Shown: piece after piece, positions 11,633-54,953 of the stretch
Position numbering within the stretch: the stretch's first letter is position 1
How the letters are laid out: each line of letters begins with the position of its first letter
Origin: an uncultured Bdellovibrionales bacterium
GTDB lineage: Bacteria > Bdellovibrionota > JAFGOL01
DNA length: 57,301 nucleotides
Direction of reading: 5' to 3'
Assembly: GCA_964452945.1 (NCBI GenBank)
Contig: CAYVOB010000001.1
Span: forward strand, 1 to 57,301
Made by a program: the position numbers and the translations under genes
The notes under the pieces: generated by a model
What the model was told of the DNA's origin: nothing
Databases searched by the model: none
The model's input: the letters and a program-made list of their open reading frames with translations, nothing else

Positions 11633-13249
11633 TTAATCCTGAACTACTATTAGTTTGAACACGGACATAAGCTCCATATAATCAAGATAGGCCCTCTTTA
11701 CACTCCAGAACTTGTTAATATCGCTCCCTTCTCTTGGAACAGCGGACATTCTGCCTTCAGCATCGTAGCTTACCTTTACATCCGAATCTTTGGTACCAAG
11801 TTCACTTATCCTACCCATCTCGTCATATTTAAAGGAGAACGAGTTACCTTTGTTATCAATTATCTTGGAAACGTTTCCATTACCGTCATAATCGATCTTG
11901 AACTTAAGGTCCCTGCTGGCCACCATCGTTACTTGGCTTTTGTCATTATACTTGTAAAGGTATGGCTCTCCATTGTTTATTATAGAGGAGGCACGGTTCC
12001 TTTCATCATATTTTACTTCGACAATCCTTCCATCAGGAAAAACCTTCTTTTTTAGTCTGCCATCCTTGTTGTATTCAAAACGCGTGACCTTGCCGTTCTC
12101 ATTTACGACGAGTGGTGTACCGCAACACATGGTGTAGGTAACCATTTTTTCATGCTTACCGATCTTTTGTCTCGTCTTATAGGTATATAAGGAGCCTTCC
12201 GCATTAGGTCTTTTCCAGAACTCATATTTTTCCGGTATAACCTCGTTACCGAACTTCTTTATTATGTTTACGGAGTCATAGTATTGGTCCTTTCCCTTAT
12301 CACTCGCATATTCGGTGAATATTTCCCATCCCTGAGGTGTCTTCTGATATACCACCTTTCCTGTTTCTGTATCATAGCCGATCACCCATTTTGTAGGCTT
12401 TGGACCCGCATCACCTGCCGGAAGTACAACCTCTATGACCCTGTGATAGGAATCATACTTATAATTATATGTTTTCCCATTAACGTCGGTGGAACTTATA
12501 AGGTTATCGTTAGTATCGTAAGAATAGGATGCAGCCTTGTTATTATATAGAGCTATCCTTTCAACAAGACCCTTGTCGTTAAAGAAGAAGTTCATGCTCC
12601 TCCCCAGACTATCCCTGATAGTTTGTAACCTTCCATTGGCATAATAGGAAAAAACAAAGCCCCTTCCTGTAGGCATGCTCCTTTTTATGATCCTGCCTGA
12701 TTGATCGAACTCATCCACCACACCGTCGGCACCTGACCTTATATAACCACCCTTGACCTTCTTTAGCTTTTCACCCGATCTTTCTATACAAGTAAGCACA
12801 ACACCATCCTTTATTTTACCCAACATCTTGTAGCCTCTTGCATACTCAAACAAGAAAGCAGGCTCTTTAAGCAGTGTGCTCTTCAGTCTTTCAACATAGT
12901 CCTTACCGTTCTGTGCTGCATTGGTTGACTTAAGGTATCTATCAGCAAGCTGTGTTAAGGTGAACGAATCCTTGTCTATATAATGGTGTCTTCCTCCACC
13001 GGGGACTTCCTCAACCATGACAAAAGATCCATCAGCAACATATAGTCTAGTCTCAAAACGTGTGCCCCAGCCAAAGCCGAAGATACCCTTTGAAAGACTT
13101 ATACTGTTATAAAAACGACCCAACTCAAAATCATTACCTTCATTCACGTCAGTATAGGATAAAGAAAAGTTACCGTTCAGGAGCCAAAGAGTGGAAAAAC
13201 CAGATAACGGTGCAAGCATGACGGCTAATGCTACTATAATTTTTTTCAT
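11633..13249 (-). CDS. secreted YD/RHS-repeat protein (short, with no toxin tip)
   Basis: 538 aa with a signal peptide. It has multiple YD repeats (YSYDTNDNLISSTDVNGKTYNYKYDSYHRV, FEYNKDGRLKKKVFPDGRIVEVKYDERNR, IDYDGNGNVSKIIDNKGNSFSFKYDEMGRI, VSYDAEGRM). Confidence 0.8.
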   Translation of the reverse strand: MKKIIVALAVMLAPLSGFSTLWLLNGNFSLSYTDVNEGNDFELGRFYNSISLSKGIFGFGWGTRFETRLYVADGSFVMVEEVPGGGRHHYIDKDSFTLTQLADRYLKSTNAAQNGKDYVERLKSTLLKEPAFLFEYARGYKMLGKIKDGVVLTCIERSGEKLKKVKGGYIRSGADGVVDEFDQSGRIIKRSMPTGRGFVFSYYANGRLQTIRDSLGRSMNFFFNDKGLVERIALYNNKAASYSYDTNDNLISSTDVNGKTYNYKYDSYHRVIEVVLPAGDAGPKPTKWVIGYDTETGKVVYQKTPQGWEIFTEYASDKGKDQYYDSVNIIKKFGNEVIPEKYEFWKRPNAEGSLYTYKTRQKIGKHEKMVTYTMCCGTPLVVNENGKVTRFEYNKDGRLKKKVFPDGRIVEVKYDERNRASSIINNGEPYLYKYNDKSQVTMVASRDLKFKIDYDGNGNVSKIIDNKGNSFSFKYDEMGRISELGTKDSDVKVSYDAEGRMSAVPREGSDINKFWSVKRAYLDYMELMSVFKLIVVQD

Positions 13250-13275: not shown

Positions 13276-14172
13276 CTAAACCTTTATAGATACTATTCGT
13301 TTTATCACAAATCCGCCTAAACCCTGAAGGAAAAACATCAGAGTCAGCATCCCATAACCCAAGGGTGTCGTGAATAGAAGTGCGGTCTGGGTTGGATTAC
13401 CATAATACTGGACCGCTAAAAGGACCAGGGGGACTACCGTTATTACTATTGCCTGGAATATTCCCTGTGCGGTCAATGCTTTTACCTTGGCTGTCAGCTT
13501 TACTCTTTCTCTTATTGTGTAGGCTATCGTATCGAACGTCTCTGGAAGATTACCACCGGTCTCCCTCAATATAAGTATGGCTGTTGCGAACATATCAAGG
13601 TCCTCAAGGTCCAGTCTTCGTGCCAGGTTAACAAAAGCTTCATCTATAGGTACACCGACCCTGTTCTGAGCCAACAATAATGTAAACTCCTGTTTAATAG
13701 GATTAGGCATCTCCTCAACTACAAGTCCAACAGCCTGTATAAGATTAAGACCGCTCCTTAACCCATTCGACATCAGTGTAAGGGCGTCGACCATTTGCAG
13801 GTTAAAGCTCATGGAGCGTTTTGCCTTCATCCAGTTTATTACCGGTATTGGCATCTTGGCGAACATGAACCCCACAGCAGAACCAACTAATATACCTGCT
13901 ATAAAGTTAGGTAAAAAGAGCACAAAAACTATAAAACCAATACCAAGTGTACCGGCATAAATAAGTATTAATGCAGTCCTCTTGTTGAAATCTATAAAAA
14001 GGGTATCCAGTTCCTTTACAAGCCATTCTGCTTTTTCTTCGAATTTTTTGTCTAGATAAGTAAGGGCTTTTTTGGAATTTATAAGTGCAACTATAAAAAT
14101 AAGGGTCCCGCCCATAACGAGCACCCCTATCTTATACAGCATCCATATGTTACCGCCTTCTTGCAACATCAA
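13276..14172 (-). CDS. tadB: Tad platform protein, TadB-like (T2SSF domain)
   Basis: Polytopic membrane protein with the T2SSF core LMSNGLRSGLNLIQAV..LARRL..DLDMFATAILILRETGGNLPETFD. It abuts the ATPase gene. The exact start is uncertain (14172, or 14142 for the MLYKIG start). Confidence 0.8.
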   Translation of the reverse strand: MMLQEGGNIWMLYKIGVLVMGGTLIFIVALINSKKALTYLDKKFEEKAEWLVKELDTLFIDFNKRTALILIYAGTLGIGFIVFVLFLPNFIAGILVGSAVGFMFAKMPIPVINWMKAKRSMSFNLQMVDALTLMSNGLRSGLNLIQAVGLVVEEMPNPIKQEFTLLLAQNRVGVPIDEAFVNLARRLDLEDLDMFATAILILRETGGNLPETFDTIAYTIRERVKLTAKVKALTAQGIFQAIVITVVPLVLLAVQYYGNPTQTALLFTTPLGYGMLTLMFFLQGLGGFVIKRIVSIKV

Positions 14173-16341
14173 CTATCCCACACTAAAAAGACCCTTAGGT
14201 ATGGAGATACCTCTGGCCTCTAGTGTTTCTATGAACCTAGGAATATATCCAGTAGCGACGAATTTTCCTATTACTTTGCCATTTGAATCAACACCTGATT
14301 GTTTGAAAAGGAAAATGTCATTCAACAAGATCTCATCACCCCTGATGCCATTGACCTCTGTAACATAAGTTACTTTTCTTGAACCATCACTTAATCTAGT
14401 CTGTTGTATCACTATATTTATTGCTGACGCTATCTGTTCCCTTATCGCCTTAGCCGGAAGTTCCATCCCTGCCATCATGACAAGTGTTTCCAGCCTTCTT
14501 ATGCAATCAGTTGGGCTGTTGGAATGTATAGTGGTCAATGAACCGTCATGACCCGTGTTCATAGCCTGCAACATGTCCAATGCTTCTCCTGAACGACACT
14601 CACCTACTATGATCCTGTCAGGCCTCATCCTGAGCGTGCATTTTACAAGGTCCCTTATGGTGACTTCTCCTTCACCTTCTATGTTAGGAGGCCTGCTTTC
14701 CAACCTAACAGTATGGTCCTGTTGAAGTTTAAGCTCGGCCGAATCTTCGACGGTGATTATTCTTTCGTGCTCCGGTATCATCCCTGAAAGTATATTGAGG
14801 AGTGTTGTTTTACCTGAGCCGGTACCACCGGAAATTATTACATTAAGTCTGGACTCTATTACCGCCTTAAAGAACTCCGTCATATCACTTGTAACAGAGC
14901 CATATTTGATAAGATCATTTGGTCCGAGTTTTTCCTTCTTGAACTTTCTTATAGTCAGCGTGGGGCCATCTATTGCCAGTGGAGGTATTATGGCGTGAAC
15001 TCTTGAGCCATCTGCAAGACGCGCATCAACATAAGGTGATTTTTCGTCTATACGCCTGCCTATAGGTGCAAGTATCCTCTCTATAACTCCCATTAATTGT
15101 TGTGAGGACGAGAACGTAGATGGCGAAAGTATGACTTTACCATTTTTCTCTATGTATATTATATCTGGACCATTGACCATTATTTCCGATACTGTTTCAT
15201 CTGACAAAAGATCTTCCAAAGGACCAAGTCCCAAAGCCTCATCCAGAATGGCCTTTATCAACAAGGCCCTGTCTTCCCTGCTCTTAAGAAAACTTAAGTC
15301 CTCTTTCTCCAACAACCCGATAACCGTTCTTTTTGTCTTCTCATAGAGAATGGTCATCTTGTTAGGATCATCCTTAGTCTCAAGGTCCATCTTCTTAAGG
15401 TCCATATTGTCTATGAGTGCTTTGTGGACCCTGCGCTTTAGTTTTGTAACCTCACTAACTTTACCGGCTCTTCTTTCCTTGACGCTGAGGGTTTCAAGTC
15501 CAGCAAGGTCTTGCGCAGCTAAGGCCCCTTCTTTTTGAGCGCTCTGCTGTTCTGCCTTTTTTGTTTTATTAACGCCATATAACGAATCGAGTATCCCTCT
15601 CTCCTGCAAGACCCTGGCTATCTGGTATATGTTCTTAGACAACAAGCTCTTTGGGGACAACAATATTGCCGGTTTACCTTTAGTTATGGAATTATGGCTG
15701 GTCTCTGGGTCTTCTTGCACAGCGCCGAGTATTGGCACAGAAAGATTGGACTGCACTATCTGAGGAGTGATCTGGTTTGAAGGATCATATTTATTAATTA
15801 TAACTTTGAGCACTTCTGGCGGGAACATTAAACCATTAAGTTCATCCACAAGTCTTTTAGTGTGTTTTAGGACTAATATCTCCGGGTTGGTTACAAGGAG
15901 TATGATCGTGGCTTGTTCTAGGATAGTAAGGACCTGTGGTGTAAGACGGCTTCCGCAATCAGCTATGGTAAACGGGAAAAAGGACATAGCTGCTTCCATG
16001 ACCCTTTTTATATCGTTACTACCCACACCGTTATATTCGGACATCTTTTGTACCATAGGAAGAACGCTTAGCCCGCTAGAATGTGCAGACAAGAATTCCT
16101 TAAGCATCGCCTGCGTAACCCTGCCTGTGAATTTTGAAACATCCGCAATGCTTCTTTGTGGTTTGATACCTAATATCATACCAGCATCACCACAGGTATC
16201 CGGATCAGCGTCTATTAAAAGTACTGGTCGCTTTGTATCTAACAAAAAAGATAAAGCAAGGTTGGTTGAAAAAAGGCTCTTGCCGACTCCACCCTTGCCG
16301 CCAAGAACCGCGATCAAGTAAGTTCTGCTTGGATTAGGCAT
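14173..16341 (-). CDS. cpaF: fusion protein: MinD/ParA-like TadZ/CpaE domain plus CpaF/TadA secretion ATPase
   Basis: 722 aa in one frame. The N-terminal roughly 255 aa carry the deviant Walker A AVLGGKGGVGKS and the IDADPD motif (MinD/CpaE type). The C-terminal roughly 420 aa form the CpaF core (EIMVNGPDIIYIEKNGK, ISGGTGSGKTTLLN, VEDSAEL, RMRPDRIIVGECRSGEA, NTGHDGSLTTIHSN). Confidence 0.85.
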   Translation of the reverse strand: MPNPSRTYLIAVLGGKGGVGKSLFSTNLALSFLLDTKRPVLLIDADPDTCGDAGMILGIKPQRSIADVSKFTGRVTQAMLKEFLSAHSSGLSVLPMVQKMSEYNGVGSNDIKRVMEAAMSFFPFTIADCGSRLTPQVLTILEQATIILLVTNPEILVLKHTKRLVDELNGLMFPPEVLKVIINKYDPSNQITPQIVQSNLSVPILGAVQEDPETSHNSITKGKPAILLSPKSLLSKNIYQIARVLQERGILDSLYGVNKTKKAEQQSAQKEGALAAQDLAGLETLSVKERRAGKVSEVTKLKRRVHKALIDNMDLKKMDLETKDDPNKMTILYEKTKRTVIGLLEKEDLSFLKSREDRALLIKAILDEALGLGPLEDLLSDETVSEIMVNGPDIIYIEKNGKVILSPSTFSSSQQLMGVIERILAPIGRRIDEKSPYVDARLADGSRVHAIIPPLAIDGPTLTIRKFKKEKLGPNDLIKYGSVTSDMTEFFKAVIESRLNVIISGGTGSGKTTLLNILSGMIPEHERIITVEDSAELKLQQDHTVRLESRPPNIEGEGEVTIRDLVKCTLRMRPDRIIVGECRSGEALDMLQAMNTGHDGSLTTIHSNSPTDCIRRLETLVMMAGMELPAKAIREQIASAINIVIQQTRLSDGSRKVTYVTEVNGIRGDEILLNDIFLFKQSGVDSNGKVIGKFVATGYIPRFIETLEARGISIPKGLFSVG

Positions 16342-16345
16342 ATAT

Positions 16346-18013
16346 TTATTTCACCCTGAATTTTTCTTTTATGGAATCGCTACCCTCGCTGGCAGTGTTC
16401 AAAATTTCCGGAGTAATAAAGACGACAAATTGTGATTTGCCTTTAGAGAAGGATTTGGACCTAGAAAGGCTCACAATAACGTTAGGATCTTCACTGCCGT
16501 CCATATAGGACTTGGACAGGTTATTTTGTACTATACCGCCTATGGCGGCAGTATCACCAGATTTTATGTTTATATATGTTTCTATAGAATCCTCTGATGT
16601 AATAGGTATTGTAGTCCCGGAGGACGTACCTATAACCTGTGATACACCTATAGCTATGGTCATATTCAGATCTTCTGATTTTTGCGGATCATTCAGTATC
16701 TTTGGAGTGATGTTCATACTGATACCTACATCAGCAGTTTTTGTATCGATACTGTTCTGTGTCTGCACCACATAAGGATATTTTGTCATCTTCTTGATGC
16801 TGCCAGTCTTGGTATCTTGTACCGTTATTGCTGCCGATTGAATAACCCTTCCCCTACGATTCCTCACTGCATCCTGAAGCTTTGGTATAAAGTTACTTAC
16901 TATACCTGTTATGGTAGTCGCTGTAGATGGCAATGGATTACCGTTGTTGTCATTAGCTGGAGGGTTGGACCAAGTAAAAGATGCATTAGTATTGTTCGTA
17001 TTTATTGATGGCGCCCAACTGAAACCAAAGGCATTATCAAATCCCTTTTGTATCTCGACAAAGTAAACCGATATCTTAACCACTTTATCGATAGGTTTAT
17101 CCGGCTCTATGACCTTAACAAAATACTGTATGATCGGCTTATCCCTAAACCCTTCTGCCGGCATCGTCATTTCTCCTGCACCGGAAGGATCGCCTATCAA
17201 AGGTGTATAAAAGTACTTTGGCAGATAAAGCACGGCCCTGTAATAAACATCTTCAAGTTCATCATAACTTTTTACTTCGCCTTTCAACACAAAGCGCTGA
17301 TTCACAACATCTACCTGTACGGTAGCTACATTAATTTCTTCTTGCATCTTTTGAGCGACTATTTTGAACAATGTAGGACTCAACCTGTATTGTATCTTGA
17401 ATATGTCTGTCGGTATGTAATCACTATTCCCGCCGATCACCTGGTGTATCCTGGCTATATCCTCCGGCAATAGTATCTCGCCATCCAGGTATATACGTTT
17501 TTCACGTATATACATCTTCAAGCCCTCTATATTCTTAAATTCCCTCTTAAGGAAGCCAAGGACCCTTTTAAGGTTCTTTTCCGTAACAGTAACGTTATAA
17601 ACATACCTAAGCACATCCTGGTTATCGTAGACCCAAAGATCTGTCATCCCCGGGGTAGTTCCGGTAAAAACTATTCTATCCTTTTCAAGACTTGGATCAT
17701 CTTCTTTTTTATTTACCTCAAATTTATATATATTGGGGTTGGTTGGTTGCCTTACTGTCCCAATAGGAAAATCAAGATAGAGCTCTTTTCGTATTCCGAG
17801 GACCACATTTATGTCGCGATATTTTACCTTTGGTTTCTTTTTTAATTTCTTTTTCTCTGTTTTCACATCCTTAACAGCAACGCTATCAGTTTGCACTTGA
17901 TCTTCTGTTGTGTTTGGGGCTTGAGCAGCATTGTCCTGAGAGAGCAATACACAAGAGTATGCAAAAGAAAGGACTAGAATTATTGAAAGCAGTATTTTTC
18001 TAAACTTCATCAT
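16346..18013 (-). CDS. cpaC: secretin, CpaC/RcpA-like
   Basis: 555 aa with a signal peptide and a low-complexity K-rich linker. C-terminal secretin-type region (GDTAAIGGIVQNN..FVVFITPEIL). Its position between cpaB and the ATPase is as in Tad loci. Confidence 0.8.
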   Translation of the reverse strand: MMKFRKILLSIILVLSFAYSCVLLSQDNAAQAPNTTEDQVQTDSVAVKDVKTEKKKLKKKPKVKYRDINVVLGIRKELYLDFPIGTVRQPTNPNIYKFEVNKKEDDPSLEKDRIVFTGTTPGMTDLWVYDNQDVLRYVYNVTVTEKNLKRVLGFLKREFKNIEGLKMYIREKRIYLDGEILLPEDIARIHQVIGGNSDYIPTDIFKIQYRLSPTLFKIVAQKMQEEINVATVQVDVVNQRFVLKGEVKSYDELEDVYYRAVLYLPKYFYTPLIGDPSGAGEMTMPAEGFRDKPIIQYFVKVIEPDKPIDKVVKISVYFVEIQKGFDNAFGFSWAPSINTNNTNASFTWSNPPANDNNGNPLPSTATTITGIVSNFIPKLQDAVRNRRGRVIQSAAITVQDTKTGSIKKMTKYPYVVQTQNSIDTKTADVGISMNITPKILNDPQKSEDLNMTIAIGVSQVIGTSSGTTIPITSEDSIETYINIKSGDTAAIGGIVQNNLSKSYMDGSEDPNVIVSLSRSKSFSKGKSQFVVFITPEILNTASEGSDSIKEKFRVK

Positions 18014-18786
18014 CTATCTAAACCAAATATCTCCCTATCCGTTGTCGGAGTTATTATCTCATTACCTCTGTCGTTGGCGTTCCTTAGTGTATAATAAAGC
18101 TCAGCTCCAGATAAAGCTACTATCTTTTGTGCTTCTTTTGGCGTCACTTCTATCGTGATATTGTTGAACTGTTGACCTGTCTCTGAACCTTTGTCCGGCT
18201 GAACACACTTAAACCCTTTTGGATAATTAGCATCAGACACAAAAGTTGGGACCTGAGTGTATACATCAGTCCCGACCGAGAGAACAAAGACATCCTGCAA
18301 GACGGTAGTAACTTTTGCTGTGTTCTGATTACCTTCTGCAACCACGGATGAGGCAAGTATATCTATCCTGTCACCTGGTTTTATAAGGTTAGCAACACTA
18401 TTCACAGTTGTAGCTCTTATCGCTATTGCACGTTTCCCTTTTGACACTATCGGGGATAATCCTGTTTTCTGACCAAGGAACAAGAGTTTATTCGTAGTAA
18501 TAGTTTCATTCTCGGCAATTGGAACCGCAGTGACCGTGTCCTTTAGGTCTTTAACATTTGCAAGATAGTTAGGCTGTACGTATTTTCTAGGTATCCTTCT
18601 AAGTTCGATCGAACCAGAATCTATTGATTGATATTGTCCTATGTTCTTCGTGGCGACCATCACCTCATCAAAAGTGCCAAGGTCCTGATACAGTTTTGCC
18701 TCTTTTTGGGATATATATGTATACCCAAGTAATATGGCAAAACCAGTAAGTATGACGGATATTATAAGCGACTTTGTATTACCCAT
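18010..18786 (-). CDS. cpaB: Flp pilus assembly protein CpaB/RcpC-like (SAF domain)
   Basis: 258 aa with an N-terminal membrane anchor and a SAF-like segment (IELRRIPRKYVQPNYL). It has a 4-nt overlap with the secretin gene. Confidence 0.75.
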   Translation of the reverse strand: MGNTKSLIISVILTGFAILLGYTYISQKEAKLYQDLGTFDEVMVATKNIGQYQSIDSGSIELRRIPRKYVQPNYLANVKDLKDTVTAVPIAENETITTNKLLFLGQKTGLSPIVSKGKRAIAIRATTVNSVANLIKPGDRIDILASSVVAEGNQNTAKVTTVLQDVFVLSVGTDVYTQVPTFVSDANYPKGFKCVQPDKGSETGQQFNNITIEVTPKEAQKIVALSGAELYYTLRNANDRGNEIITPTTDREIFGLDR

Positions 18787-18797
18787 ATGTCTCTCCT

Positions 18798-19298
18798 CTA
18801 TTTCTTACTGCAGGTGTCACCATCCTGCATTTCGAGAACCTTTGTATCTACTTGCTCGTTCATAACACTTCTTCCACCCAAACAGATCCCCATCGCTTGC
18901 CCCATAGAAAGTCCGTCTGTAAGACGAGCTTCCAGGCCACTACGATCCCCTCTGGTCATAAAAGTAAGCAGTATGCTCGCCGTTGACTTGTCCAAACCTA
19001 TATTCATTCCAGGGGTACCGCTATCATCACCGAATTGATTATATACAAAGAAGTATTGCCCGTCAGCAGGAGTTTTTCCAGCAGGGTTCTTTGTACTCTT
19101 AACTTCGGTTGTAACCTCAGACCTATTCATCAGAGAACCTATCACAATGTTCTTTAATGATCTTTGTACAACCTGGACCCTATTAACGGTTATGTACGCC
19201 TGATATATAAAGAATATCATGACAACGACGAATGGTATCAAGAGAACCGTCTCAAGCATTGCCTGTCCTTTTTTAGAACCCGTTGTCGGCGATAACAT
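18798..19298 (-). CDS. TadE-like pseudopilin
   Basis: 166 aa. N-terminus GSKKGQAMLETVLLIPFVVVMIFFIY (short basic leader, G-Q junction, Glu at +5, hydrophobic helix). Confidence 0.6.
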   Translation of the reverse strand: MLSPTTGSKKGQAMLETVLLIPFVVVMIFFIYQAYITVNRVQVVQRSLKNIVIGSLMNRSEVTTEVKSTKNPAGKTPADGQYFFVYNQFGDDSGTPGMNIGLDKSTASILLTFMTRGDRSGLEARLTDGLSMGQAMGICLGGRSVMNEQVDTKVLEMQDGDTCSKK

Positions 19299-19836
19299 TA
19301 AGTACCGAACCTCCTGTTGCTGAAGAAGCTAGACAATCCATCCATTTGTTCTTTGGATCCATTGCACACTGAGAATGGTCATCCGAGATCTCACTACCGG
19401 TCATGGATTCTAAGGCCAGCATCAGCTGATTTCCACTACTCCTTGTAATTATACCCGGTAACAAGTAATTAGCATAAACAGAACATGCTATACCGGCATT
19501 GGAGGATATATTAAAGCCTGACGGGAAACCATAGTCCATGATACCCCTGAACCCATTTGAAGGATTAAGGTCGCATACTGGTGCAGAAACAGCAGTTATA
19601 ACGGAAGCTCCGTCATATTTTGCTTTTACTTCGTTAGCCCTACTCAACTTATCACCATATGACTTTGACGACGCAAGTATTGCCCTTCCGATCATGAAGA
19701 CCTCATAACTTCTATAATGTAAGGCAGCAAATGATACTGCAAAATAAAAGGCATAGATTATAACGCTTATCACGAGCACGAACATCATGACAAACTCCAC
19801 AGCGACCTGTCCTTTTTTAGATCCCTTTGATCTCAA
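19273..19836 (-). CDS. TadE-like pseudopilin
   Basis: 187 aa. N-terminus MRSKGSKKGQVAVEFVMMFVLVISVIIYAFY. Confidence 0.6.
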   Translation of the reverse strand: MRSKGSKKGQVAVEFVMMFVLVISVIIYAFYFAVSFAALHYRSYEVFMIGRAILASSKSYGDKLSRANEVKAKYDGASVITAVSAPVCDLNPSNGFRGIMDYGFPSGFNISSNAGIACSVYANYLLPGIITRSSGNQLMLALESMTGSEISDDHSQCAMDPKNKWMDCLASSATGGSVLNVIADNGF

Positions 19837-20138
19837 ATCCAGCCACCTTTTATGTAACTGTAAGGATGTTTACTACCGGTATTGCTGACAGGCCCGTACA
19901 TCAAGGGCGCCTGACCGCTAGTCACAGTACCGTTAGCTTCGTTGAACTGATCTTGATAGAAATCCCTTGAATAGCCGTAGCGGACCTGTGAGACGACTTC
20001 ATACTTAAGCCATGAATCCATTTTTCCAAAAACGTTCTTATTGATGTAAGAAATAGTCGCGACCAATATGGGAACAAGGACTGCTATCATCAGTAAGAAT
20101 TCGACTGTAGCTTGACCTTTCCTTTTACCCAACCCCAT
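19833..20138 (-). CDS. TadE-like minor pilin
   Basis: 101 aa. N-terminus MGLGKRKGQATVEFLLMIAVLVPILVATI. Confidence 0.6.
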   Translation of the reverse strand: MGLGKRKGQATVEFLLMIAVLVPILVATISYINKNVFGKMDSWLKYEVVSQVRYGYSRDFYQDQFNEANGTVTSGQAPLMYGPVSNTGSKHPYSYIKGGWI

Positions 20139-20168: not shown

Positions 20169-20375
20169 TTATTGGGTTTTCTGCCAACCACTTGTTTGTG
20201 ATGTTGAGAGCTTTTCTATAACCTGATTTTTCATGAAAAGTTCTATCGCACCTTGTTGACCATCCCATCCATAAAAGATGTCCTGAACATGTACCACTAC
20301 CTTCCAGAATATAGCTGCAATAACGACCATAAGAAGAAGATACTCTACGGTCGCCTGTCCTTTTTTAGAGACCAT
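20169..20375 (-). CDS. flp: Flp-family prepilin
   Basis: 68 aa. MVSKKG/QATVEYLLLMVVIAAIF fits the Flp G/xxxxEY processing motif. Confidence 0.7.
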   Translation of the reverse strand: MVSKKGQATVEYLLLMVVIAAIFWKVVVHVQDIFYGWDGQQGAIELFMKNQVIEKLSTSQTSGWQKTQ

Positions 20376-20377
20376 TA

Positions 20378-20569
20378 TTACTGACCAGACTGTTCTACCG
20401 TATCCAATCCTTTGGAAACCTTTCCAGTTGCCTTTTCTACCAGGCCCTGGAATTGTTTAGGCATAAATTTAGCGACTACAACTACTATAGCTACCAGCAC
20501 GGCTAGTATAAGTATGTATTCCGTCGCACTCTGTCCTCTTTTATTAAAAAAAGTTCTAAGACCTTTCAT
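20378..20569 (-). CDS. flp: Flp-family prepilin
   Basis: 63 aa. MKGLRTFFNKRG/QSATEYILILAVLVAIVVVVA. A strong Shine-Dalgarno sequence (GAGGGGAGG) and a consensus promoter lie upstream. Confidence 0.7.
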   Translation of the reverse strand: MKGLRTFFNKRGQSATEYILILAVLVAIVVVVAKFMPKQFQGLVEKATGKVSKGLDTVEQSGQ

Positions 20570-20610: not shown

Positions 20611-20639
20611 ATTATAGTATATCTATGCAAATTTGTCAA
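20611..20639 (-). promoter_or_regulatory. consensus sigma-70 promoter driving the flp genes
   Basis: The minus strand reads TTGACA-AATTTGCATAGATATAC(17 nt)-TATAAT. It sits about 40 nt upstream of the flp ATG and right after the stop of the upstream FHA gene. Confidence 0.7.
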
Positions 20640-20659: not shown

Positions 20660-22774
20660 TCATAATTTAGTGCCACACCTTTTTTTAGCTCTCTCCGCAG
20701 CATTATTGTAATACTTACTTCCAGGTATCGCTATCTCCAACACCCTATTATACAAAGGGCATGCAGTTGCAAGATCAGAAACACTTTCTGCTATAGCAGC
20801 TCTTGCAAAGATCTCCCTTGCTTCTTCATCCAAAGCTTCCTTGGATTTATTTATACCGTCCTTTGCCTCCTTGTTCTTGTAGTCCATCTTCAAGACCCTT
20901 TTATAAGCATCTATGGCCTCTTTATATCTACCGTTGGTATAAGCCTCCATAGCACCGCTCAGCTCTGGTGTAACAGCCTCTTTAAGAAGATTGCTGGCCG
21001 AACCCAAAAGTGTTTTGCACTCGTTCTTTATCTGTGTGATCCTTTCTCCGTCGCTGGGTGGATAAGCTACACACTTCTGGAATGTTTCTATGGCCTTTCT
21101 GTACTCCTTAGTGGCGTGATACCTTTTCCCCTCAGCAAGCACTTTCTCATACTTGGAAAGTGTAACAAGGTATTTCGCTCTCTCGTCAGCAAGCATCTTC
21201 TTTTTAGATTCCATTGCCTCTATCTGATCCGCTAGCGCTTTTGCTTTCTCATTATTGGGGTCTATCTCGAATATCTTGGAGATCAGGTCTTTTACTTGAT
21301 CATATTTTTTTTGTCGCATCAGTGACTCAGCATCCTGAAGGTATAGGGCCACCTTTTTTTCCAGTTCCTTCCTGACCACTGCCTCTTCTTCTTCTTTCTT
21401 TTGAGCCAGGAGTTTTTCCTTTTCTGTATTAGCTGCATTCAAAAGTTCTTTTGCCTTATCCCAGTCAGGGACTTCGGTAAGTATTTGTTGTGCCATATCC
21501 TCGGCAAGCTCGAACTGATAGTTCTTGAACAGCTTAAGTGCCACTTCATATTTAGCCAGTAATTCTTTTTGTACCGTTAATGTACGTTGACAAAAAGATC
21601 CCGTCTCCTCACATTTTACTTCCGGAATAGCCTCTTCTGCGGGAGCTGCCTGTGGTTCAACATTATTATTGTTAACAGGCGCAGGCTGTTCCTGTTTGCT
21701 CCCTTTTCCCAACAAGATCACAGCTACAACGACTATAAGTCCAACGATCAGGATTATTGGTATTAGTTTATTCTTCTTTATAGCTTCTTTAGCACCTTCT
21801 TTAAAGCCATAGGACTTCTCTATCTTTCTTATAGCGGTATCACTTGGTACCGCAGAGATCTTCTCTACGGATCCATGCTTTGATCCTGTGGTTTGACCTA
21901 TATCCTTAACACCCTGGATGTTCTGCACTTGGGGATTTACGACCATAAAGCGGAGTATAGAGGAACCAATCTCTATAATGTCTCCGCTAGTAAGAAGGAC
22001 CGGCTCAAGAGTTTTTTTGCCATTTACTCTTGTGCCGTTAGCACTATCAAGATCGACTACAAAATAGTCAACACCCTGCCTATAGAACCTGGTATGCTCT
22101 CTGGATACAAGATCATCTATAAGAGATATATCAGCTTTTTTTCCTCTACCGGCTATCATCACGTCTTTTTCAAGAGTGAATACTTTATCCTTGTGCGGAC
22201 CACTTATAGCGATGAGTTGATATAAAAGATATGCTGGCCCCACCATTGTAGCATCGGAGACTACCTGTCTTGACTCTGTTGTCTTTTCCTCTTTTTTACC
22301 AGCAACAGGCTCTACTTTTTCTTCTACCTTTTCTTTTTCTTCATCTTTTTCTTTTTCCGTAGGCTCTTTTGCTTCTTCTTGTTCAGGCGTGACGGTCTCT
22401 TCCTTTACAGGTTCAACCTCTGCGCTCATAGTAAAAAAATCAAAGTCGTCCTGTTTTTTCTTTGGCTTTTCTGACTCACTCGAACCTGCTTTTGCATCGA
22501 ACATCACTGTCACGTCACCTATGGATACACTCTCACCATCCTTTAATTCACCTTTTTCTATATCTTCACCATTCTTGTTTATCATGCCAAATTTTGCTTT
22601 CTTAGAGAAAGAAAGAGTTTCGGCATCCTTTACATTGAATTCAATGTGTTTACGAGACACGTTGTCTTCCGGTATACAGATGTCGCAACTTTCTGTACGA
22701 CCAAGGACAAAAGAATCCCTTTTTATATCGAACTCTTTAATGAGCTTGTTTGCTTTAAAAACCTTTATTTTCAT
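20660..22774 (-). CDS. membrane protein with two cytoplasmic FHA domains and a periplasmic TPR-rich domain
   Basis: 704 aa. FHA1: LGRTESCDICIPEDNVSRKHIEF. Acidic E/K linker. FHA2: AGRGKKADISLIDDLVSREHTRF..VVDLDSANGTRVNG. One transmembrane helix (LIPIILIVGLIVVVAVILLG). The C-terminal part has TPR-like repeats. Confidence 0.8.
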   Translation of the reverse strand: MKIKVFKANKLIKEFDIKRDSFVLGRTESCDICIPEDNVSRKHIEFNVKDAETLSFSKKAKFGMINKNGEDIEKGELKDGESVSIGDVTVMFDAKAGSSESEKPKKKQDDFDFFTMSAEVEPVKEETVTPEQEEAKEPTEKEKDEEKEKVEEKVEPVAGKKEEKTTESRQVVSDATMVGPAYLLYQLIAISGPHKDKVFTLEKDVMIAGRGKKADISLIDDLVSREHTRFYRQGVDYFVVDLDSANGTRVNGKKTLEPVLLTSGDIIEIGSSILRFMVVNPQVQNIQGVKDIGQTTGSKHGSVEKISAVPSDTAIRKIEKSYGFKEGAKEAIKKNKLIPIILIVGLIVVVAVILLGKGSKQEQPAPVNNNNVEPQAAPAEEAIPEVKCEETGSFCQRTLTVQKELLAKYEVALKLFKNYQFELAEDMAQQILTEVPDWDKAKELLNAANTEKEKLLAQKKEEEEAVVRKELEKKVALYLQDAESLMRQKKYDQVKDLISKIFEIDPNNEKAKALADQIEAMESKKKMLADERAKYLVTLSKYEKVLAEGKRYHATKEYRKAIETFQKCVAYPPSDGERITQIKNECKTLLGSASNLLKEAVTPELSGAMEAYTNGRYKEAIDAYKRVLKMDYKNKEAKDGINKSKEALDEEAREIFARAAIAESVSDLATACPLYNRVLEIAIPGSKYYNNAAERAKKRCGTKL

Positions 22775-23748
22775 TATTCAAAAACTTCCCCTCTTCTTTT
22801 TTCGGTCATATTTTTCCACTTCTCGGCTTCTTTGAATAGATTCGAATCCGCTTGTCTGTTGTTAAGGTTCAAAACCTCATTAAAATTCCTCAATGCATCC
22901 TCATAACGCTTTTGGGCGAACATCTTTTTCCCTATGGATAGATATTTCTGGCTTTCCTCTTCTATCTTCTTGTTGGTTTGACCTGCGGCTGTTTTAGCCC
23001 TTGTATGGCCTGGATAAAAGGCAACCGCTTTTCTGAACTCTTCCAATGCTCTCGAATAATTCTGCAACCTGAATTCTCTTTGTCCCTCAAAATAACGAGC
23101 ATTAGCCTGATCGAATAATTCCCGTTCATCGTCAGGTATCTTTTTTCTGAACCTGGCATCCTCTTCATCGCTGAACATATCATTGTTGTTATTCTGGTTC
23201 TGTCCAGATGTATTAACGGCCTGGTCCTTATCGGACCCTTCTTTAGATTTCTCCTGTGACGGCAACATCAATATAAAAATGACCAGAAGTAATAAAACCC
23301 CGCCGTATATAACGAACCTCTTGTTCTTAATACCTTTAGCTCCTGTTGTCGAAGACGGTATATTAAAATCCATAGAAGACGAAGATATCCCTGGTATTGT
23401 CCTTTCTGGACTTTTTGACTGTGATGGTTCATTGAGCCTTAGTTCCTCAACATCTTTTTCTGCATACATGTACTCATGGTTCCCAATAGAGAACACATCA
23501 CCTGATACGAGATAATGTTCCTTTACTTTTTTACCGTTAACAAGAATACCATTACTGGAATTAAGGTCTTTTATTACAAAGGAATCATTCACTCTTATAA
23601 GTTCTGCATGATTCCTTGATGCTGATGAATCAGTTACAACTATATCATTATCTGCAGAGCGGCCAAAGCGTACACTGCTGCCTTTGATCCTGAATTGTGC
23701 TCCAGCATCGTTACCCTTTAGTATCTCTATTCTTGCTTCCTTTGCCAT
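22774..23748 (-). CDS. membrane protein with an FHA domain and TPR repeats
   Basis: 324 aa. FHA: FGRSADNDIVVTDSSASRNHAELI..IKDLNSSNGILVNG. Transmembrane helix FVIYGGVLLLLVIFILML. C-terminal TPR-like repeats. Its stop overlaps the start of the next gene (TAATG). Confidence 0.8.
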   Translation of the reverse strand: MAKEARIEILKGNDAGAQFRIKGSSVRFGRSADNDIVVTDSSASRNHAELIRVNDSFVIKDLNSSNGILVNGKKVKEHYLVSGDVFSIGNHEYMYAEKDVEELRLNEPSQSKSPERTIPGISSSSMDFNIPSSTTGAKGIKNKRFVIYGGVLLLLVIFILMLPSQEKSKEGSDKDQAVNTSGQNQNNNNDMFSDEEDARFRKKIPDDERELFDQANARYFEGQREFRLQNYSRALEEFRKAVAFYPGHTRAKTAAGQTNKKIEEESQKYLSIGKKMFAQKRYEDALRNFNEVLNLNNRQADSNLFKEAEKWKNMTEKRRGEVFE

Positions 23749-23754
23749 ATCCTT

Positions 23755-25374
23755 TTATACCATCTCCACGCTGACGCAGTGATACGTAAACTCTCCCCTG
23801 TCATTTTTTATACCGCTTACCCCTATCCTGTATACCTTATCACTAACTATTGCCTCCTCGCTAAGATCCTGTCCCATTTCATCGAACCTGGCAATAAGGC
23901 TCAAGATAACACCAAGTATCCTTTGCTCCTTGATCGCGTCCACTAAAGGGATCCCGTGCCAATCAGAAGCTCTGTACGTAGTAATAGTAGAAAAAGCCTG
24001 ATTGGCAGAAACTATCGTATTTGAGTTATCCAATACAAAAAAAGGTACTTTAAGTGAACGACCAACTGAATCGAAGATAAGGATGTTGTCTATACCGCCA
24101 TGCATGTCATGCAGCGATTCTGGTGCATTCTCATAAAAGACCTTAGCAGAAGCCCTTCTAGATTTTCTTATAAGTATGTTCAAAAGCTCTACTAGGTCCA
24201 TTCCCTCCCTGGTACCAAAGCTATAATTAACTCTTTTTGCTTCACCCTTGAGAGCGAGATCAAGCTCGTCGTATATCCTGACAAAAGGCAGAGTGAATAG
24301 CCTAGAAAAGAACATCGCAATTAACACGCCAATAAAGCAAGCTATAGCCATACCGACCAATATCCTTTGCCAAGCACCCGCCATGCTATTCTGTATACCA
24401 GAGGTGCCGAACATAAGTGTGGCAAAACCAACGATCACGTTCTGGCCCTCTCCTTCAGAATAGACCTTTATTGGCGATGTAACAATATACTCTCCGTTAC
24501 CCACAGAAAAAACATCCGCGCTCCTTTTGTAAACATTGGCGCCTATTTTTACAGTATCTTCCTTAAATTCTATTGTTCCTTTTAGTATCTCCTTTATCCT
24601 GTCCATTACAGCACCGGGGATCTGGTCTCCTGCTCTATCAGCTGGAGCGAGTATCTTTCCGTTTAGGTCAGTAATGGCGGACCATTCCACACCAGGAACA
24701 TCTTCGGCTGCTTTGATAGAAGGGATCTCTTCACTCTCTGTAGTGACAGTATTCTTGTTTTCTTCTGCAAGCAGGTTCGAAAGATATACAGCCCTCTGTG
24801 CAGCCTCATTATCAAGCAACATACTGTCAAACTGGATCACAGGTACGGTAACTATGAGCGTAATGGCAACTATACTAACAAGCAGCACTATCGATATAAT
24901 CACTGATACGGAATATCTTTTTGATATTTCCTCAAAGAAAGGCATTACAGTCGTCTCAAGGAAAGAATCAATACTCCCTTTTAAGCCCGGAATCCTTGTT
25001 CTTGGTTTACCCCTATATTCAAATTCATAATCATCACTTTGTTGTCCCTCTGGGACAGAAAAGCTGGACATATCTTCGATTTTAACATCACCTTTAACCA
25101 GCTGGTATACGTGATCATGTATCGCTATTTTATCACCGGCGTTGATCTCTTTTTTCTTAACCATAACACCATTAACGAAGGTACCATTCTTGGAACCAAG
25201 GTCTATTATACTTACAATGCTGCCCTTAACATTTATGTTGGCATGCTTTTTTGATACACCGTTAGAAGCGATCTTTATATCCGCACCATCGGCACGACCT
25301 ATAATGTTATCTCCTTCTTTAAGTATCGATGACCTTGCCGAGCTCTGGCCGCTTAAACATATCAGGCGGAACAT
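23755..25374 (-). CDS. FHA-domain membrane protein with a periplasmic sensor-like loop and a HAMP/PAS-like C-terminus
   Basis: 539 aa. FHA: IGRADGADIKIASNGVSKKHANI..IIDLGSKNGTFVNG. Two transmembrane helices flank a loop of about 150 aa. A cytoplasmic C-terminal domain follows, with no kinase or other output motif visible. Confidence 0.75.
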   Translation of the reverse strand: MFRLICLSGQSSARSSILKEGDNIIGRADGADIKIASNGVSKKHANINVKGSIVSIIDLGSKNGTFVNGVMVKKKEINAGDKIAIHDHVYQLVKGDVKIEDMSSFSVPEGQQSDDYEFEYRGKPRTRIPGLKGSIDSFLETTVMPFFEEISKRYSVSVIISIVLLVSIVAITLIVTVPVIQFDSMLLDNEAAQRAVYLSNLLAEENKNTVTTESEEIPSIKAAEDVPGVEWSAITDLNGKILAPADRAGDQIPGAVMDRIKEILKGTIEFKEDTVKIGANVYKRSADVFSVGNGEYIVTSPIKVYSEGEGQNVIVGFATLMFGTSGIQNSMAGAWQRILVGMAIACFIGVLIAMFFSRLFTLPFVRIYDELDLALKGEAKRVNYSFGTREGMDLVELLNILIRKSRRASAKVFYENAPESLHDMHGGIDNILIFDSVGRSLKVPFFVLDNSNTIVSANQAFSTITTYRASDWHGIPLVDAIKEQRILGVILSLIARFDEMGQDLSEEAIVSDKVYRIGVSGIKNDRGEFTYHCVSVEMV

Positions 25375-25700
25375 CTTATAACCTCCCCGATCTTTAACGA
25401 CTTTGATTCTATAGTACCACTATAAAGCTCTAGCGTGCTCTTTGCCTTAAATCTTGGTTTGCATATTCTCCACGGTCTTACATTACTTTCCATATCTACG
25501 ATCGCGTTATTAGCATCAAGATATACAGCATCTATATTATTGATCATGAACAATGTATGTATCCAATTGCATCTCGGTATCAGCAGACCATCTCCCTCGT
25601 TTATTGATCGCTTTAACATAAAGCCCCTAAATCTCAAAAAAACAGATTCCGCTCTTTCTACATTGTCAGCTATCATTCTTTCGCCAGAGGATATTTTCAT
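25362..25700 (-). CDS. DUF192 (COG1430)-like small protein
   Basis: 112 aa. The pattern RFRGFMLK..GDGLLIP.CNWIHTLFM...IDAVYLD..N.IV......PW......KA.STLELYSGT fits my recollection of DUF192. It overlaps both neighbours (4 nt and 13 nt). Confidence 0.6.
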   Translation of the reverse strand: MKISSGERMIADNVERAESVFLRFRGFMLKRSINEGDGLLIPRCNWIHTLFMINNIDAVYLDANNAIVDMESNVRPWRICKPRFKAKSTLELYSGTIESKSLKIGEVIRCSA

Positions 25701-26596
25701 CCGCCATAAACCTTCTTTAAGATGATCGGACCGAATATAACTATAAAAACTGCCGGAAGTATGAATATTGCCATCGGGATCAATATCTTTGTCGCCGCTT
25801 TTCCGGCCTTAGCCTCGGCTGACATAAACCGTTCATGCCTGATAGAATCTGATTGTGCTCTAAGTACATCCCCTACGGGAGATCCCATCCTTTCAGCCGT
25901 AACAAGAACAGAGACAAAAGAAGTTATCTCCTTAAGACCGATCCTGTCTGCCATGTTCTTTAACGCTTCACTTCTCATGGCACCAAGCTGTATCTCCTTT
26001 AGCACTATCTCGAACTCTGACCTTAAAGGTCCAGGCTGTCCCTTTTCCACGACCTTGCCCATAGCTCCATTAAAATCAAGTCCAGCTTCCACACAAAGAG
26101 TTAAAAGATCGACCACAAATGGCATCTCTCTCTTTACTTGATCTTGGCGTTTTACGATAACACCGTTTATCCAGAACTGTGGATAATACCAGCCAAAAAA
26201 AGCAAATATGGGGGCATACATTACAGGAAGCCCAAAACCCAAAATGAAGTTATATATGTAAACTGCGAACGGAAGAGAGAATGCAAACACGACCCTGTAA
26301 GCATACATGTCGTCTGGAGAAAAAACGTCCCTCAACCCAGCACTAGAGAGTTTCTTTCTCATTTTTTCCCTATACTTCTCTAGCTTCCACTTTGTAACAC
26401 TGGGTAATATCCTTCTTACCAGAGGATACATCACCTTCAACACCGGCGATGGAAAATCTTTTTTGATCAGGCCTATCCCAAGCCTTTCTTGATCATCGAT
26501 GGAAAGCTCTTCACCTACGATAAGTTTGACAAGGATATATATAGCTATGCCAATAAGTATTGCTGCAATAATGAGTGTAATAGTGCCCATCCCCAT
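25697..26596 (-). CDS. tadC: Tad platform protein, TadC-like (T2SSF domain)
   Basis: 299 aa polytopic protein with the core MPFVVDLLTLCVEAGLDFNGAM..MADRIGLKEITSFVSVLVTAERMGSPVGDVLR. Confidence 0.8.
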   Translation of the reverse strand: MGMGTITLIIAAILIGIAIYILVKLIVGEELSIDDQERLGIGLIKKDFPSPVLKVMYPLVRRILPSVTKWKLEKYREKMRKKLSSAGLRDVFSPDDMYAYRVVFAFSLPFAVYIYNFILGFGLPVMYAPIFAFFGWYYPQFWINGVIVKRQDQVKREMPFVVDLLTLCVEAGLDFNGAMGKVVEKGQPGPLRSEFEIVLKEIQLGAMRSEALKNMADRIGLKEITSFVSVLVTAERMGSPVGDVLRAQSDSIRHERFMSAEAKAGKAATKILIPMAIFILPAVFIVIFGPIILKKVYGG

Positions 26597-43853: not shown

Positions 43854-44616
43854 GAGATACAAGGACATAGCCATAAAGGCTACCGAGATAGGCGGCAAGA
43901 TACTACTTAAGCATTTTGAGAAAATAGCTGCCTATGACATAAAAAAAGGGGCTGGTTTTGTAACAAAAGCCGATATGGAATCCGAAGAAGCAATATCCTC
44001 ATTCCTCAGAAAACAAACACCGGATTTTGGTATATTCGCTGAAGAAGGAGGCAACAGGTATAAAGGCAACAGCAGGTGGATAATCGATCCACTCGATGGC
44101 ACTACAAATTTCTTTCACCACGTTCCACATTTTAATATAAGTATCGCCTTAGAGATCAACAAAGAAGTCGTAGTTGGAGTTGTATACGATCCTATAAAAA
44201 AAGAGATGTTCAATTGTAGAAAAGGCGGTGGAGCATACAGGAACAATTCCAGGATATACGTATCAAAGACAAAAAAACTTTCGACTGCAATGCTTGCAAC
44301 TGGATTCGCCTACATGAGAAGAGATAAATTAAAAGAAGCGCTGGATCTGTTCTTAAAATTCTCTGTAAAATGCCATGGCATAAGACGCTTTGGTGCAGCT
44401 GCACTTGACAGTTGCTACGTAGCTGCAGGTATATATGATGGATTCTATGAAAAGACCTTAAACCCTTGGGATGTTGCAGCGGGTGCGTTACTGGTAACGG
44501 AGGCTGGAGGGAAGGTCAGTTCCTATAACGGAGATAAATTTTCTATCTATAGCAAAGAGATAGTGGTTTCAAACGGTCTTATACATCAAGAAATGATCAA
44601 GACGATGGAGCGTTGA
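43840..44616 (+). CDS. inositol monophosphatase family protein (SuhB-like)
   Basis: 258 aa. FAEEGG, WIIDPLDGTTNF, WDVAAGALLVTEAGG. Confidence 0.85.
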   Translation: MKQLERYKDIAIKATEIGGKILLKHFEKIAAYDIKKGAGFVTKADMESEEAISSFLRKQTPDFGIFAEEGGNRYKGNSRWIIDPLDGTTNFFHHVPHFNISIALEINKEVVVGVVYDPIKKEMFNCRKGGGAYRNNSRIYVSKTKKLSTAMLATGFAYMRRDKLKEALDLFLKFSVKCHGIRRFGAAALDSCYVAAGIYDGFYEKTLNPWDVAAGALLVTEAGGKVSSYNGDKFSIYSKEIVVSNGLIHQEMIKTMER

Positions 44617-54880: not shown

Positions 54881-54953
54881 ACAACACCCTCCTTTTTTTA
54901 ATAAAGAATAATCCTTTAGCAAAAACACCTAGAGTGTATTACAATTTATCTGC

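Follow-up and report, generated by a model that had tools for sequence, protein, structure and literature searches.

What do three consecutive membrane proteins with FHA domains do in a Tad pilus gene cluster? The question is raised by a 57-kb stretch of DNA from an uncultured Bdellovibrionales bacterium (GenBank contig CAYVOB010000001.1, 57,301 nucleotides; hereafter the window), in which the proteins, here called FHA1, FHA2 and FHA3, are encoded directly after a TadC-type platform gene and a small DUF192 gene. Judging from domain composition and gene order, we consider the trio very probably to be a Tad accessory module of the type of Bd0472-Bd0474 of Bdellovibrio bacteriovorus. The best explanation as a whole, in which the three proteins would be the counterparts of Bd0472-Bd0474, inner-membrane accessory subunits of a predatory Kil-like Tad machine and a checkpoint on its activity, seems to us reasonably probable. 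That the module works through phosphothreonine-dependent gating is a more tentative proposal, plausible enough to pursue but one to which we do not commit ourselves.

The module comprises five genes:

25697..26596, minus strand: TadC-type inner-membrane platform gene (T2SSF), first of the module (Pfam T2SSF, E 1.7e-20)
25362..25700, minus strand: DUF192 (COG1430) small protein, overlapping both neighbours (Pfam PF02643, E 2.6e-14)
23755..25374, minus strand: FHA1, 539 aa, with a cytoplasmic FHA domain, a first transmembrane (TM) helix, a periplasmic PAS/Cache-like domain, a second TM helix, a HAMP-like hairpin and a cytoplasmic PAS-like domain (Pfam, AlphaFold, Foldseek)
22774..23748, minus strand: FHA2, 324 aa, with a cytoplasmic FHA domain, one TM helix and a short periplasmic TPR domain (Pfam, hydropathy)
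20660..22774, minus strand: FHA3, 704 aa, with a degenerate FHA domain, a disordered acidic linker, a canonical FHA domain, a TM helix and a helical TPR-like periplasmic domain of ~300 aa (Pfam, AlphaFold)

Pfam was run on all open reading frames (ORFs) of at least 150 aa in the window except UvrB, some of them as concatenated chimeras. A first-pass annotation, made from the sequence alone, had described three translationally coupled minus-strand ORFs that encode membrane proteins with four FHA domains, two of them in the third protein, and this description was borne out. The ORFs run from 25374 to 23755, 23748 to 22774 and 22774 to 20660, and their junctions, read directly, consist of the overlap GAATAATGAAA (TAATG) and a 6-nt gap (TAA-AAGGAT-ATG). 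Upstream, the TGA stop of tadC overlaps the DUF192 ATG as ATGA, and DUF192 overlaps FHA1 by 13 nt. Because of these overlaps and the 6-nt gap, tadC-DUF192-FHA1-FHA2-FHA3 is read as one coupled unit. The Pfam FHA scores lie far above the cut-off of 20.7 bits in FHA1 (PF00498, 59.8 bits, E 3.5e-16), FHA2 (70.9 bits, E 1.2e-19) and FHA3 (84 bits, E 1e-23, in two matched stretches). The modelled FHA domains of FHA1 and FHA3 are beta-sandwiches, with Foldseek TM-scores of 0.85-0.97 (target-normalised) against FhaA, GarA, OdhI and DgcB. Hydropathy placed two TM helices in FHA1 (158-176 and 338-356) and one each in FHA2 (145-163) and FHA3 (337-355), the topology first proposed, and the flanking charges fit an N-in orientation in each protein. 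Each of the three is predicted to combine at least one cytoplasmic FHA domain with a periplasmic sensing or protein-binding domain. Chance or an annotation artefact as the origin of the trio was ruled out by the E-values together with synteny conserved across clades.

The synteny was established from related genomes. An alignment of FHA3 recovered nine genome loci, from Bdellovibrionales, Oligoflexia or unclassified metagenome-assembled genomes, and two further loci (L010 and L011) were reached via distant homologs of FHA1. Eleven Bdellovibrionota loci share the order tadC-DUF192-FHA1-FHA2-FHA3, as far as the length of their contigs lets it be seen. Within the nine-locus set, contig permitting, this order continues as tadC-DUF192-FHA1-FHA2-FHA3-pilins-CpaB-secretin-TadZA-TadB-RHS, L009 included. 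Identity of the FHA proteins to those of the window is 42-61% in L004-L006 and 23-28% in L008 and L009, and in the window, L004-L006 and L009 the pilin, secretin and ATPase genes directly adjoin the module. L010 and L011 carry a stand-alone tadC-DUF192-FHA1-FHA2-FHA3 module, with genes for DivIVA and pyrroline-5-carboxylate reductase upstream and unrelated genes downstream. Their FHA1 and FHA2 are 23-25% identical to the window proteins; FHA3 gives short local matches (86 residues at 28-33%), and the partial L011 FHA3 is 24% identical over the N-terminal 270 residues. The window tadC shows 38.6% identity to the TadC of these stand-alone loci and ~24% to the other T2SSF type. The DUF192 gene is kept in every related locus holding that position, and a literature search for a link between DUF192 and pili found nothing relevant. 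The first-pass annotation had located the trio between two platform genes and the pilins. Its link to Tad holds, but only one platform gene lies upstream (25697-26596), with DUF192 in between; the second, TadB-type T2SSF gene (13276-14172) lies downstream of the secretin and TadZ-TadA genes.

The same arrangement is known from B. bacteriovorus. Duncan et al. list Bd0470 as TadC, followed by Bd0471 and by Bd0472-Bd0474 as 'FHA domain-containing', with the DivIVA gene Bd0464 upstream (PMC6561027), and in the published operon Bd0470-Bd0475 the FHA trio is co-transcribed with tadC and Bd0471. The window shares with it TadC, a small protein and three FHA genes in order, here co-directional and tightly spaced, with the DUF192 gene in the Bd0471 position. 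FHA3 is built as Bd0474: a pair of FHA domains in the cytoplasm is followed by a TM helix and, outside the cytoplasm, by a TPR domain. A 2025 study of Bd0474 assigned FHA domains to residues 2-100 and 134-241 and the TPR domain to 363-673 (PMC12034629). Both systems have a TadZ-TadA fusion and no tad-linked prepilin peptidase (no prepilin peptidase ORF was seen in the window), and L010 and L011 resemble strain HD100 in the upstream DivIVA gene. Three differences stand beside these likenesses. The B. bacteriovorus module sits at a separate locus, whereas that of the window is contiguous with the pilin-secretin-ATPase cluster; the window clade has no gene in the Bd0475 position after FHA3; and the FHA2 pocket is decayed in the Bdellovibrio-like L010 and L011 but intact in the window.

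Published genetics connect these genes to predation. In transposon sequencing (Tn-seq), Bd0470-Bd0474 have predation fitness values of 0.002-0.03, and all five are needed for predation; Bd0472-Bd0474 score 0.002-0.004 and Bd0471 0.015 (PMC6561027). The Bd0474::tn mutant attaches to prey and cannot kill or round it, whereas tadC::tn fails to attach (PMC6561027). The first-pass annotation had said that its proposal would fall if profile searches did not support FHA folds or if loss of the genes had no effect; the profiles do support the folds, and in the same-order B. bacteriovorus genes the effect on predation is the one just described. At the protein level, Bd0474 binds the inner-membrane TPR protein Bd0075 via the periplasmic domains of both in a bacterial two-hybrid assay, and a contact between Bd0473 and Bd0475 is predicted (PMC12034629). 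A recent preprint on the Bdellovibrio Tad systems likewise reports FHA, TPR and PAS genes near tadC (bioRxiv 10.64898/2026.07.08.737194). That the FHA genes are an unrelated signalling operon lying beside tad genes by accident would agree with their separation from the main tad cluster in B. bacteriovorus, L010 and L011. We find this hardly credible, given that tadC is always the first gene of the module, with the genes behind it translationally coupled to it, that tadC and the FHA genes share predation-defective Tn-seq scores, and that the module adjoins pilin, secretin and ATPase genes in the window clade and L009.

A further parallel, compared by description, is the Kil system of Myxococcus (KilD/MXAN_3108, MXAN_4648, MXAN_4649, MXAN_3104, KilF), a predatory Tad-like machine rich in FHA and FHA+TPR proteins. 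FHA proteins are over-represented in the Kil clusters. One of them, the FHA+TPR protein KilD, is needed for killing and gathers where prey is contacted, also when the core machine is missing (PMC8460266). The Bd0470 ortholog KilH adjoins the FHA genes MXAN_4648 and MXAN_4649 (PMC8460266), much as the trio lies close behind tadC in the window. Phospho-signalling resembling that of Fha1 in the type VI secretion system (T6SS) has already been proposed, by the Kil authors and in a 2025 review among others, as a working hypothesis for both Kil and Bdellovibrio Tad systems (PMC8460266, PMC12428579, bioRxiv 10.64898/2026.07.08.737194). The Kil system differs in that KilD is annotated as cytoplasmic, that its ATPase KilF is itself fused to an FHA domain and not to TadZ, and that no WalK-like FHA sensor has been reported there.

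Whether the module could read phosphothreonine depends on the FHA pockets, which we compared residue by residue. The domains concerned in FHA1 and FHA3 are as follows:

25090..25374, minus strand: FHA domain of FHA1 (aa 1-95), whose phosphothreonine pocket is complete (residue conservation)
22496..22774, minus strand: FHA-a of FHA3 (aa 1-93), an FHA fold whose pocket is incomplete (alignment; beta-sandwich in the model)
21938..22249, minus strand: FHA-b of FHA3 (aa 176-279), canonical phosphothreonine-type (conservation in 60 family members)

The pocket signature (G-R, S-x-x-H and S/T-x-N-G) is complete in FHA1, FHA2 and FHA-b and incomplete in FHA-a. The FHA consensus quoted at first pass therefore describes three of the four domains and not FHA-a, which has no S-x-N-G. 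In FHA1, none of 19 homologs, with identities as low as 21%, departs from the pocket residues G26, R27, S41, K42, H44, S61, N63, G64 and T65, and the motif is also present in L010 and L011. In FHA2, G29, R30, S44, R45, H47, S64, N66 and G67 are invariant in 15 sequences from the window clade and L008/L009; the FHA2 of L010 and L011 has lost S-x-N-G. Across 60 family members of 21-45% identity, FHA-b never varies at G209, S224 and N246, and conservation at R210, R225, S244 and G247 is 90% or higher. FHA-a conserves G25, R26, R41 and H43, keeping G-R and (S/A)-R-K-H, and has a conserved KK-x-K-F-G in place of the S-x-N-G loop. On residue conservation, the two universally intact pockets are those of FHA1 and FHA-b. 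The PDB sequences closest to FHA-b are Mb1858, GarA, OdhI and Bdellovibrio DgcB. In sequence as in fold, the nearest solved FHA domains are those of DgcB and the actinobacterial GarA, OdhI and FhaA, each of which binds phosphothreonine peptides; unlike the trio, these proteins are soluble enzyme regulators and not pilus-machine components anchored in the membrane.

The main rival is a scaffold that works without phosphorylation. The FHA domains would then be plain docking modules, assembled into a collar on the cytoplasmic side of the Tad platform, as in SctD of type III secretion, EssC of type VII secretion or Myxococcus GltG, with an envelope-spanning periplasmic frame and no kinase. All four domains also match the Pfam family Yop-YscD_cpl, and type III secretion SctD proteins (YscD/PrgH/EscD) share an N-terminal cytoplasmic FHA fold, one TM helix and a periplasmic domain. 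They differ from the trio in their alpha/beta ring-building periplasmic motifs and non-canonical pocket, where the trio has TPR-like helices or a PAS/Cache fold in the periplasm and three canonical pockets. The SctD model TIGR02500 scores only 18 bits against a cut-off of 86, which does not support membership, and YscD appears only at rank ~42-50 in the Foldseek list of FHA3. Another counterpart for such a scaffold is Myxococcus GltG (partner GltJ), which shares with FHA3 two cytoplasmic FHA domains, disordered linkers, one TM helix and a long periplasmic extension, and which has been modelled as a structural connector (PMC11761067); Bd0075, the partner of Bd0474, has a GYF-like domain, as GltJ does. 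GltG nevertheless carries a TonB-C-like domain at its C-terminus and acts together with the Agl motor. The GltG model NF033760 matches the N-terminal 168 residues of FHA3 alone (53.7 bits, cut-off 650, E 1e-14). The Bd0474-Bd0075 contact, running through periplasmic domains, also suits a scaffold. Nonetheless, the phosphate-contacting R, S and N are invariant or nearly so in FHA1 and FHA-b to ~21% identity, which is hard to explain if no phosphate on a ligand is bound; the closest solved relatives bind phosphothreonine, and one clade has a PP2C-family gene embedded in the module (see below). On balance we regard a phosphorylation-independent scaffold as rather unlikely.

The preferred reading, a checkpoint that uses phosphothreonine, has several observations weighing against it. 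The first concerns the pockets themselves: FHA-a is degenerate in every homolog, and the FHA2 pocket is decayed in L010 and L011, so that some of the FHA domains act without phosphothreonine; both facts also favour the scaffold. The second concerns the enzymes. No kinase, phosphatase or phosphosite is tied to the trio. As the first-pass annotation had stated, none is visible nearby: no Pkinase (Hanks) or PP2C match was found by Pfam in window ORFs of at least 150 aa (UvrB not scanned), and there is no kinase or active phosphatase in the 57-kb window or in relatives of 21-22 kb, as a scaffold would lead one to expect. L009 does hold a PP2C-family ORF (12349-13083, plus strand) that overlaps the FHA3 stop codon, with matches to NCBIfam Stp1/IreP (E 5e-14) and to tPphA in the PDB (E 7e-7), and the first 111 residues of the same gene are present in L008 (12310-12642, plus strand) before the contig ends. 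The L009 protein, however, has Ala at the positions of the tPphA metal-binding residues D119 and D193, and its best PDB matches are the corresponding mutants; because these Asp residues are missing, the protein may be inactive, a pseudophosphatase. The window clade has no such gene after FHA3. A 228 aa ORF after FHA3 in L010, in the Bd0475 position, aligns weakly with the L009 protein in a pairwise comparison (E 5e-4) and found no counterpart in the PDB or NCBIfam. Thirdly, the linker of TadZ-TadA (~259-300), a conceivable target, is variable and has no conserved Thr among three sequences. Finally, the match to Bd0472-Bd0474 rests on published annotations, gene order and the L010/L011 intermediates, not on direct alignment.

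How heavily the missing kinase should count can be judged from other systems. In Bdellovibrio, DgcB is activated when its own FHA domain binds its phosphorylated tail; the kinase is unlinked, with Bd3148 proposed, and this FHA-phosphothreonine signalling operates in invasion (PMC6733907). By analogy, an unlinked kinase would be expected in this phylum. The T6SS protein Fha1/TagH with PpkA and PppA offers the functional likeness of an FHA protein that reads a phosphothreonine signal and licenses a contact-dependent envelope machine, an analogy drawn both by the first-pass annotation and by Seef et al. It differs in that Fha1 is a soluble protein whose kinase and phosphatase genes lie in the same cluster, whereas the window has neither and has no T6SS genes; the TagH model TIGR03354 gives 36.9 bits (cut-off 120.25), over the FHA region only, and hence no membership.

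If phosphothreonine is read on the cytoplasmic side, what is sensed on the other? FHA1 is the candidate sensor, with its extracytoplasmic part encoded as follows:

24364..24846, minus strand: periplasmic loop of FHA1 (aa 177-337), a long helix followed by an alpha/beta PAS/Cache-like fold (AlphaFold, WalK-like alignment, PF17203 in homologs)

The AlphaFold model (mean predicted local distance difference test score, pLDDT, 74.9) shows an FHA sandwich (1-95), a disordered linker (97-127) and a first TM helix that continues into a long periplasmic helix. It goes on with an alpha/beta PAS/Cache-like domain (207-323), the second TM helix, a helical hairpin (357-416) and a PAS-like fold (430-538). 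The best Foldseek match is a full-length WalK model (9a5d_A; 410 columns, E 2e-12), followed in rank by phosphothreonine-binding FHA domains. There is also a weak NCBIfam WalK match over residues 158-411 (E 0.0026), and PF17203 sCache_3_2 was found in two FHA1 homologs. Pfam called no HAMP in FHA1, and its PAS match was sub-threshold. No HisKA (DHp) or HATPase_c match was found by Pfam, and the chain stops at residue 539, once the PAS-like fold is complete. These results uphold the first-pass description of a HAMP/PAS-like tail with no output domain, in that the model has a helical hairpin and PAS-like fold and Pfam matched no output domain. FHA1 thus has a TM helix, an extracytoplasmic PAS/Cache domain, a second TM helix, a HAMP-like hairpin and a PAS domain in the same order as WalK-type sensor histidine kinases. 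Those kinases have DHp and catalytic ATPase domains, both of which FHA1 lacks, and FHA1 has gained an N-terminal FHA domain. On the model, FHA1 is a histidine-kinase-type input module that lacks a kinase core, lost or never present, with an FHA domain at its N-terminus.

FHA2 and FHA3 reach into the periplasm with TPR-type domains, as the first-pass annotation had proposed for two of the proteins: TPR_2 scores 33.1 bits in FHA2 and 34.5 bits in FHA3 (cut-off 27). FHA2 has no periplasmic Cys. In a profile-profile comparison (hhalign), FHA2 is collinear with FHA3 residues 190-506 (probability 99.8). Because of this collinearity, FHA2 is best described, from sequence profiles, as a short paralog of FHA3 that covers FHA-b, the TM helix and the membrane-proximal part of the TPR domain. 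The larger domain is encoded here:

20678..21580, minus strand: periplasmic helical TPR-like domain of FHA3 (aa 399-699) (AlphaFold)

The FHA3 model has a mean pLDDT of 75.8, rising above 90 for the periplasmic helices (399-699). It contains two FHA sandwiches (1-93 and 176-279) separated by a disordered acidic linker of ~80 residues, and periplasmic helices of 30-49 aa that alternate with helices of 13-14 aa. Foldseek searches with the whole model returned a match list filled by FHA domains. When the periplasmic domain was the sole query against 1.84 billion representative proteins, 195 matches were obtained at E<=1e-10. Most were proteins of 650-870 aa matched at their C-terminus, and FHA domains were present in 60 of the 60 sampled. 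Because of the number of matches, their C-terminal position and the FHA domains in all sampled members, the FHA3 family is, on sequence, large and of fixed architecture.

Some further features of FHA3 deserve mention. In its periplasmic part (20660-21634) it has six Cys residues (388, 395, 568, 586, 672 and 700), largely conserved in closer homologs (47-76% identity), although one sub-clade lacks 395 and a clade at 25% identity lacks all six; this pattern fits disulfides and a periplasmic location. The acidic linker is otherwise variable and contains a motif, DFDFFTMS (residues 108-116, including T115), that the window clade conserves; T175, immediately ahead of FHA-b, hardly varies across 60 divergent family members. 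It is speculation that T115 and T175 are candidate phosphosites or self-ligands.

The first-pass annotation had suggested that the periplasmic TPR arrays replace a missing TadD pilotin or bridge the inner-membrane platform to the secretin. TadD is an outer-membrane lipoprotein. Pfam scans revealed no TadD-like gene in the tad cluster, and the FHA3 periplasmic helices, up to 49 residues long, could reach far into the periplasm. Each protein of the trio, however, begins with a cytoplasmic FHA domain, has no signal peptide or lipobox and is held in the inner membrane by an internal TM anchor. CpaB/RcpC, the usual link between platform and secretin, is present. Kil systems also do without TadD (PMC8460266). 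The only tested TPR partner of Bd0474 is the inner-membrane Bd0075 (PMC12034629), and attachment needs the Tad machine, yet Bd0474::tn attaches where tadC::tn does not; therefore Bd0474 is not needed for Tad assembly. A pilotin substitute or secretin bridge found no support in these data, and we judge either to be very improbable.

The most likely mechanism of the accessory module would be a trans-membrane adaptor or checkpoint. The TPR-like arms of FHA2 and FHA3 would reach into the periplasm and bind envelope partners, as Bd0474 binds Bd0075, and FHA1 would sense an envelope or prey-contact cue. The canonical pockets of FHA1 and FHA-b would dock phosphothreonine sites written by an unlinked Hanks-type kinase, and the outcome would be to license the TadC/TadB-TadZA motor at a step after prey attachment. 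Phosphorylation dependence, the identity of the FHA ligands and a direct contact with TadC or TadZA are what we infer in this scheme. A bolder version holds that FHA1 represents a class of transmembrane receptors with a phosphopeptide-binding output, in which the WalK-like input frees the protein's own FHA domain, that the trio is a prey-contact checkpoint and that, in some clades, the pseudophosphatase protects or presents the phosphosite. We consider this version unlikely as it stands; if it were true, the checkpoint would integrate a cue from the envelope with the signal of a Ser/Thr kinase and so trigger the Tad motor once prey is attached.

The remaining genes of the window complete the tad cluster. 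From ~30.5 kb to 11.6 kb every gene lies on the minus strand, in the transcription order radical-SAM gene, RNase G, TadC-type T2SSF, DUF192, FHA1, FHA2 and FHA3, followed by two Flp-type pilins, three TadE-like genes, CpaB/RcpC, the secretin, TadZ-TadA, the second T2SSF gene and an RHS/YD-repeat gene. The features downstream of FHA3 are:

20611..20639, minus strand: promoter-like site ahead of the pilin genes, TTGACA-17-TATAAT, 12/12 (consensus scan; a match in sequence alone)
20169..20569, minus strand: two Flp-type pilin genes, 63 and 68 aa (20378-20569 and 20169-20375), with a G/Q-x-x-x-E-Y class III leader
18798..20138, minus strand: three TadE-like minor pilin genes (first two by Pfam Class_IIIsignal and weak TadE, third by synteny)
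13276..18786, minus strand: CpaB/RcpC, secretin, TadZ-TadA fusion ATPase and TadB-type platform gene (Pfam RcpC, Secretin, CbiA+T2SSE, T2SSF)

The sigma-70 consensus site falls between the stop codon of FHA3 and the start codon of the first Flp pilin gene, which are 90 nt apart in the window clade; this predicted promoter suggests that the pilins are transcribed separately from the tadC-FHA unit. Both Flp-type pilin genes are conserved in L001-L007. The third TadE-like gene (18798-19298) has no Pfam match and was placed through synteny. TadZ (ParA/MinD-like) is fused to the TadA ATPase in a protein of 722 aa (14173-16341, minus strand), as in B. bacteriovorus TadZA.

Directly after the TadB-type gene lies a gene for an RHS/YD-repeat protein with a signal peptide and DUF6531 (11633-13249, minus strand), which is kept in this position in L004 (13206-14831) and in the distant L009 (20175-22031). 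It could be a candidate Tad-associated effector or tip partner; the Kil tip paper makes no mention of such an RHS protein. An orphan TadA-family ATPase (375 aa; 44597-45724, minus strand) and a small PilZ-domain ORF (56025-56348, minus strand), both remote from the tad cluster, recall the B. bacteriovorus tadA3 locus and its PilZ neighbours. A small cluster at 53056-56015 encodes two lipoproteins, one with TPR repeats (411 aa, lipobox LLSSC) and one LpoB-like, together with another TPR protein; this group is probably unrelated to Tad and, by its position, not a TadD look-alike.

The kind of system described here is already known, and the locus is a deeply diverged further instance of a known module. 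What is new is the contiguity of the module with a full tad cluster, the WalK-like FHA1, the pocket map, the paralogy of FHA2 and FHA3 and the PP2C-like neighbour. Tad (Kil-like) pili serve Bdellovibrio and Myxococcus as a weapon used on contact or as a device for invasion, and the FHA trio is the best candidate for the link between prey contact and machine activity. With the window, the trio is now known from a further lineage, independent and deeply diverged, where it is physically joined to the whole tad cluster, and the pocket map, with FHA1 and FHA-b intact, gives direct targets for mutagenesis.

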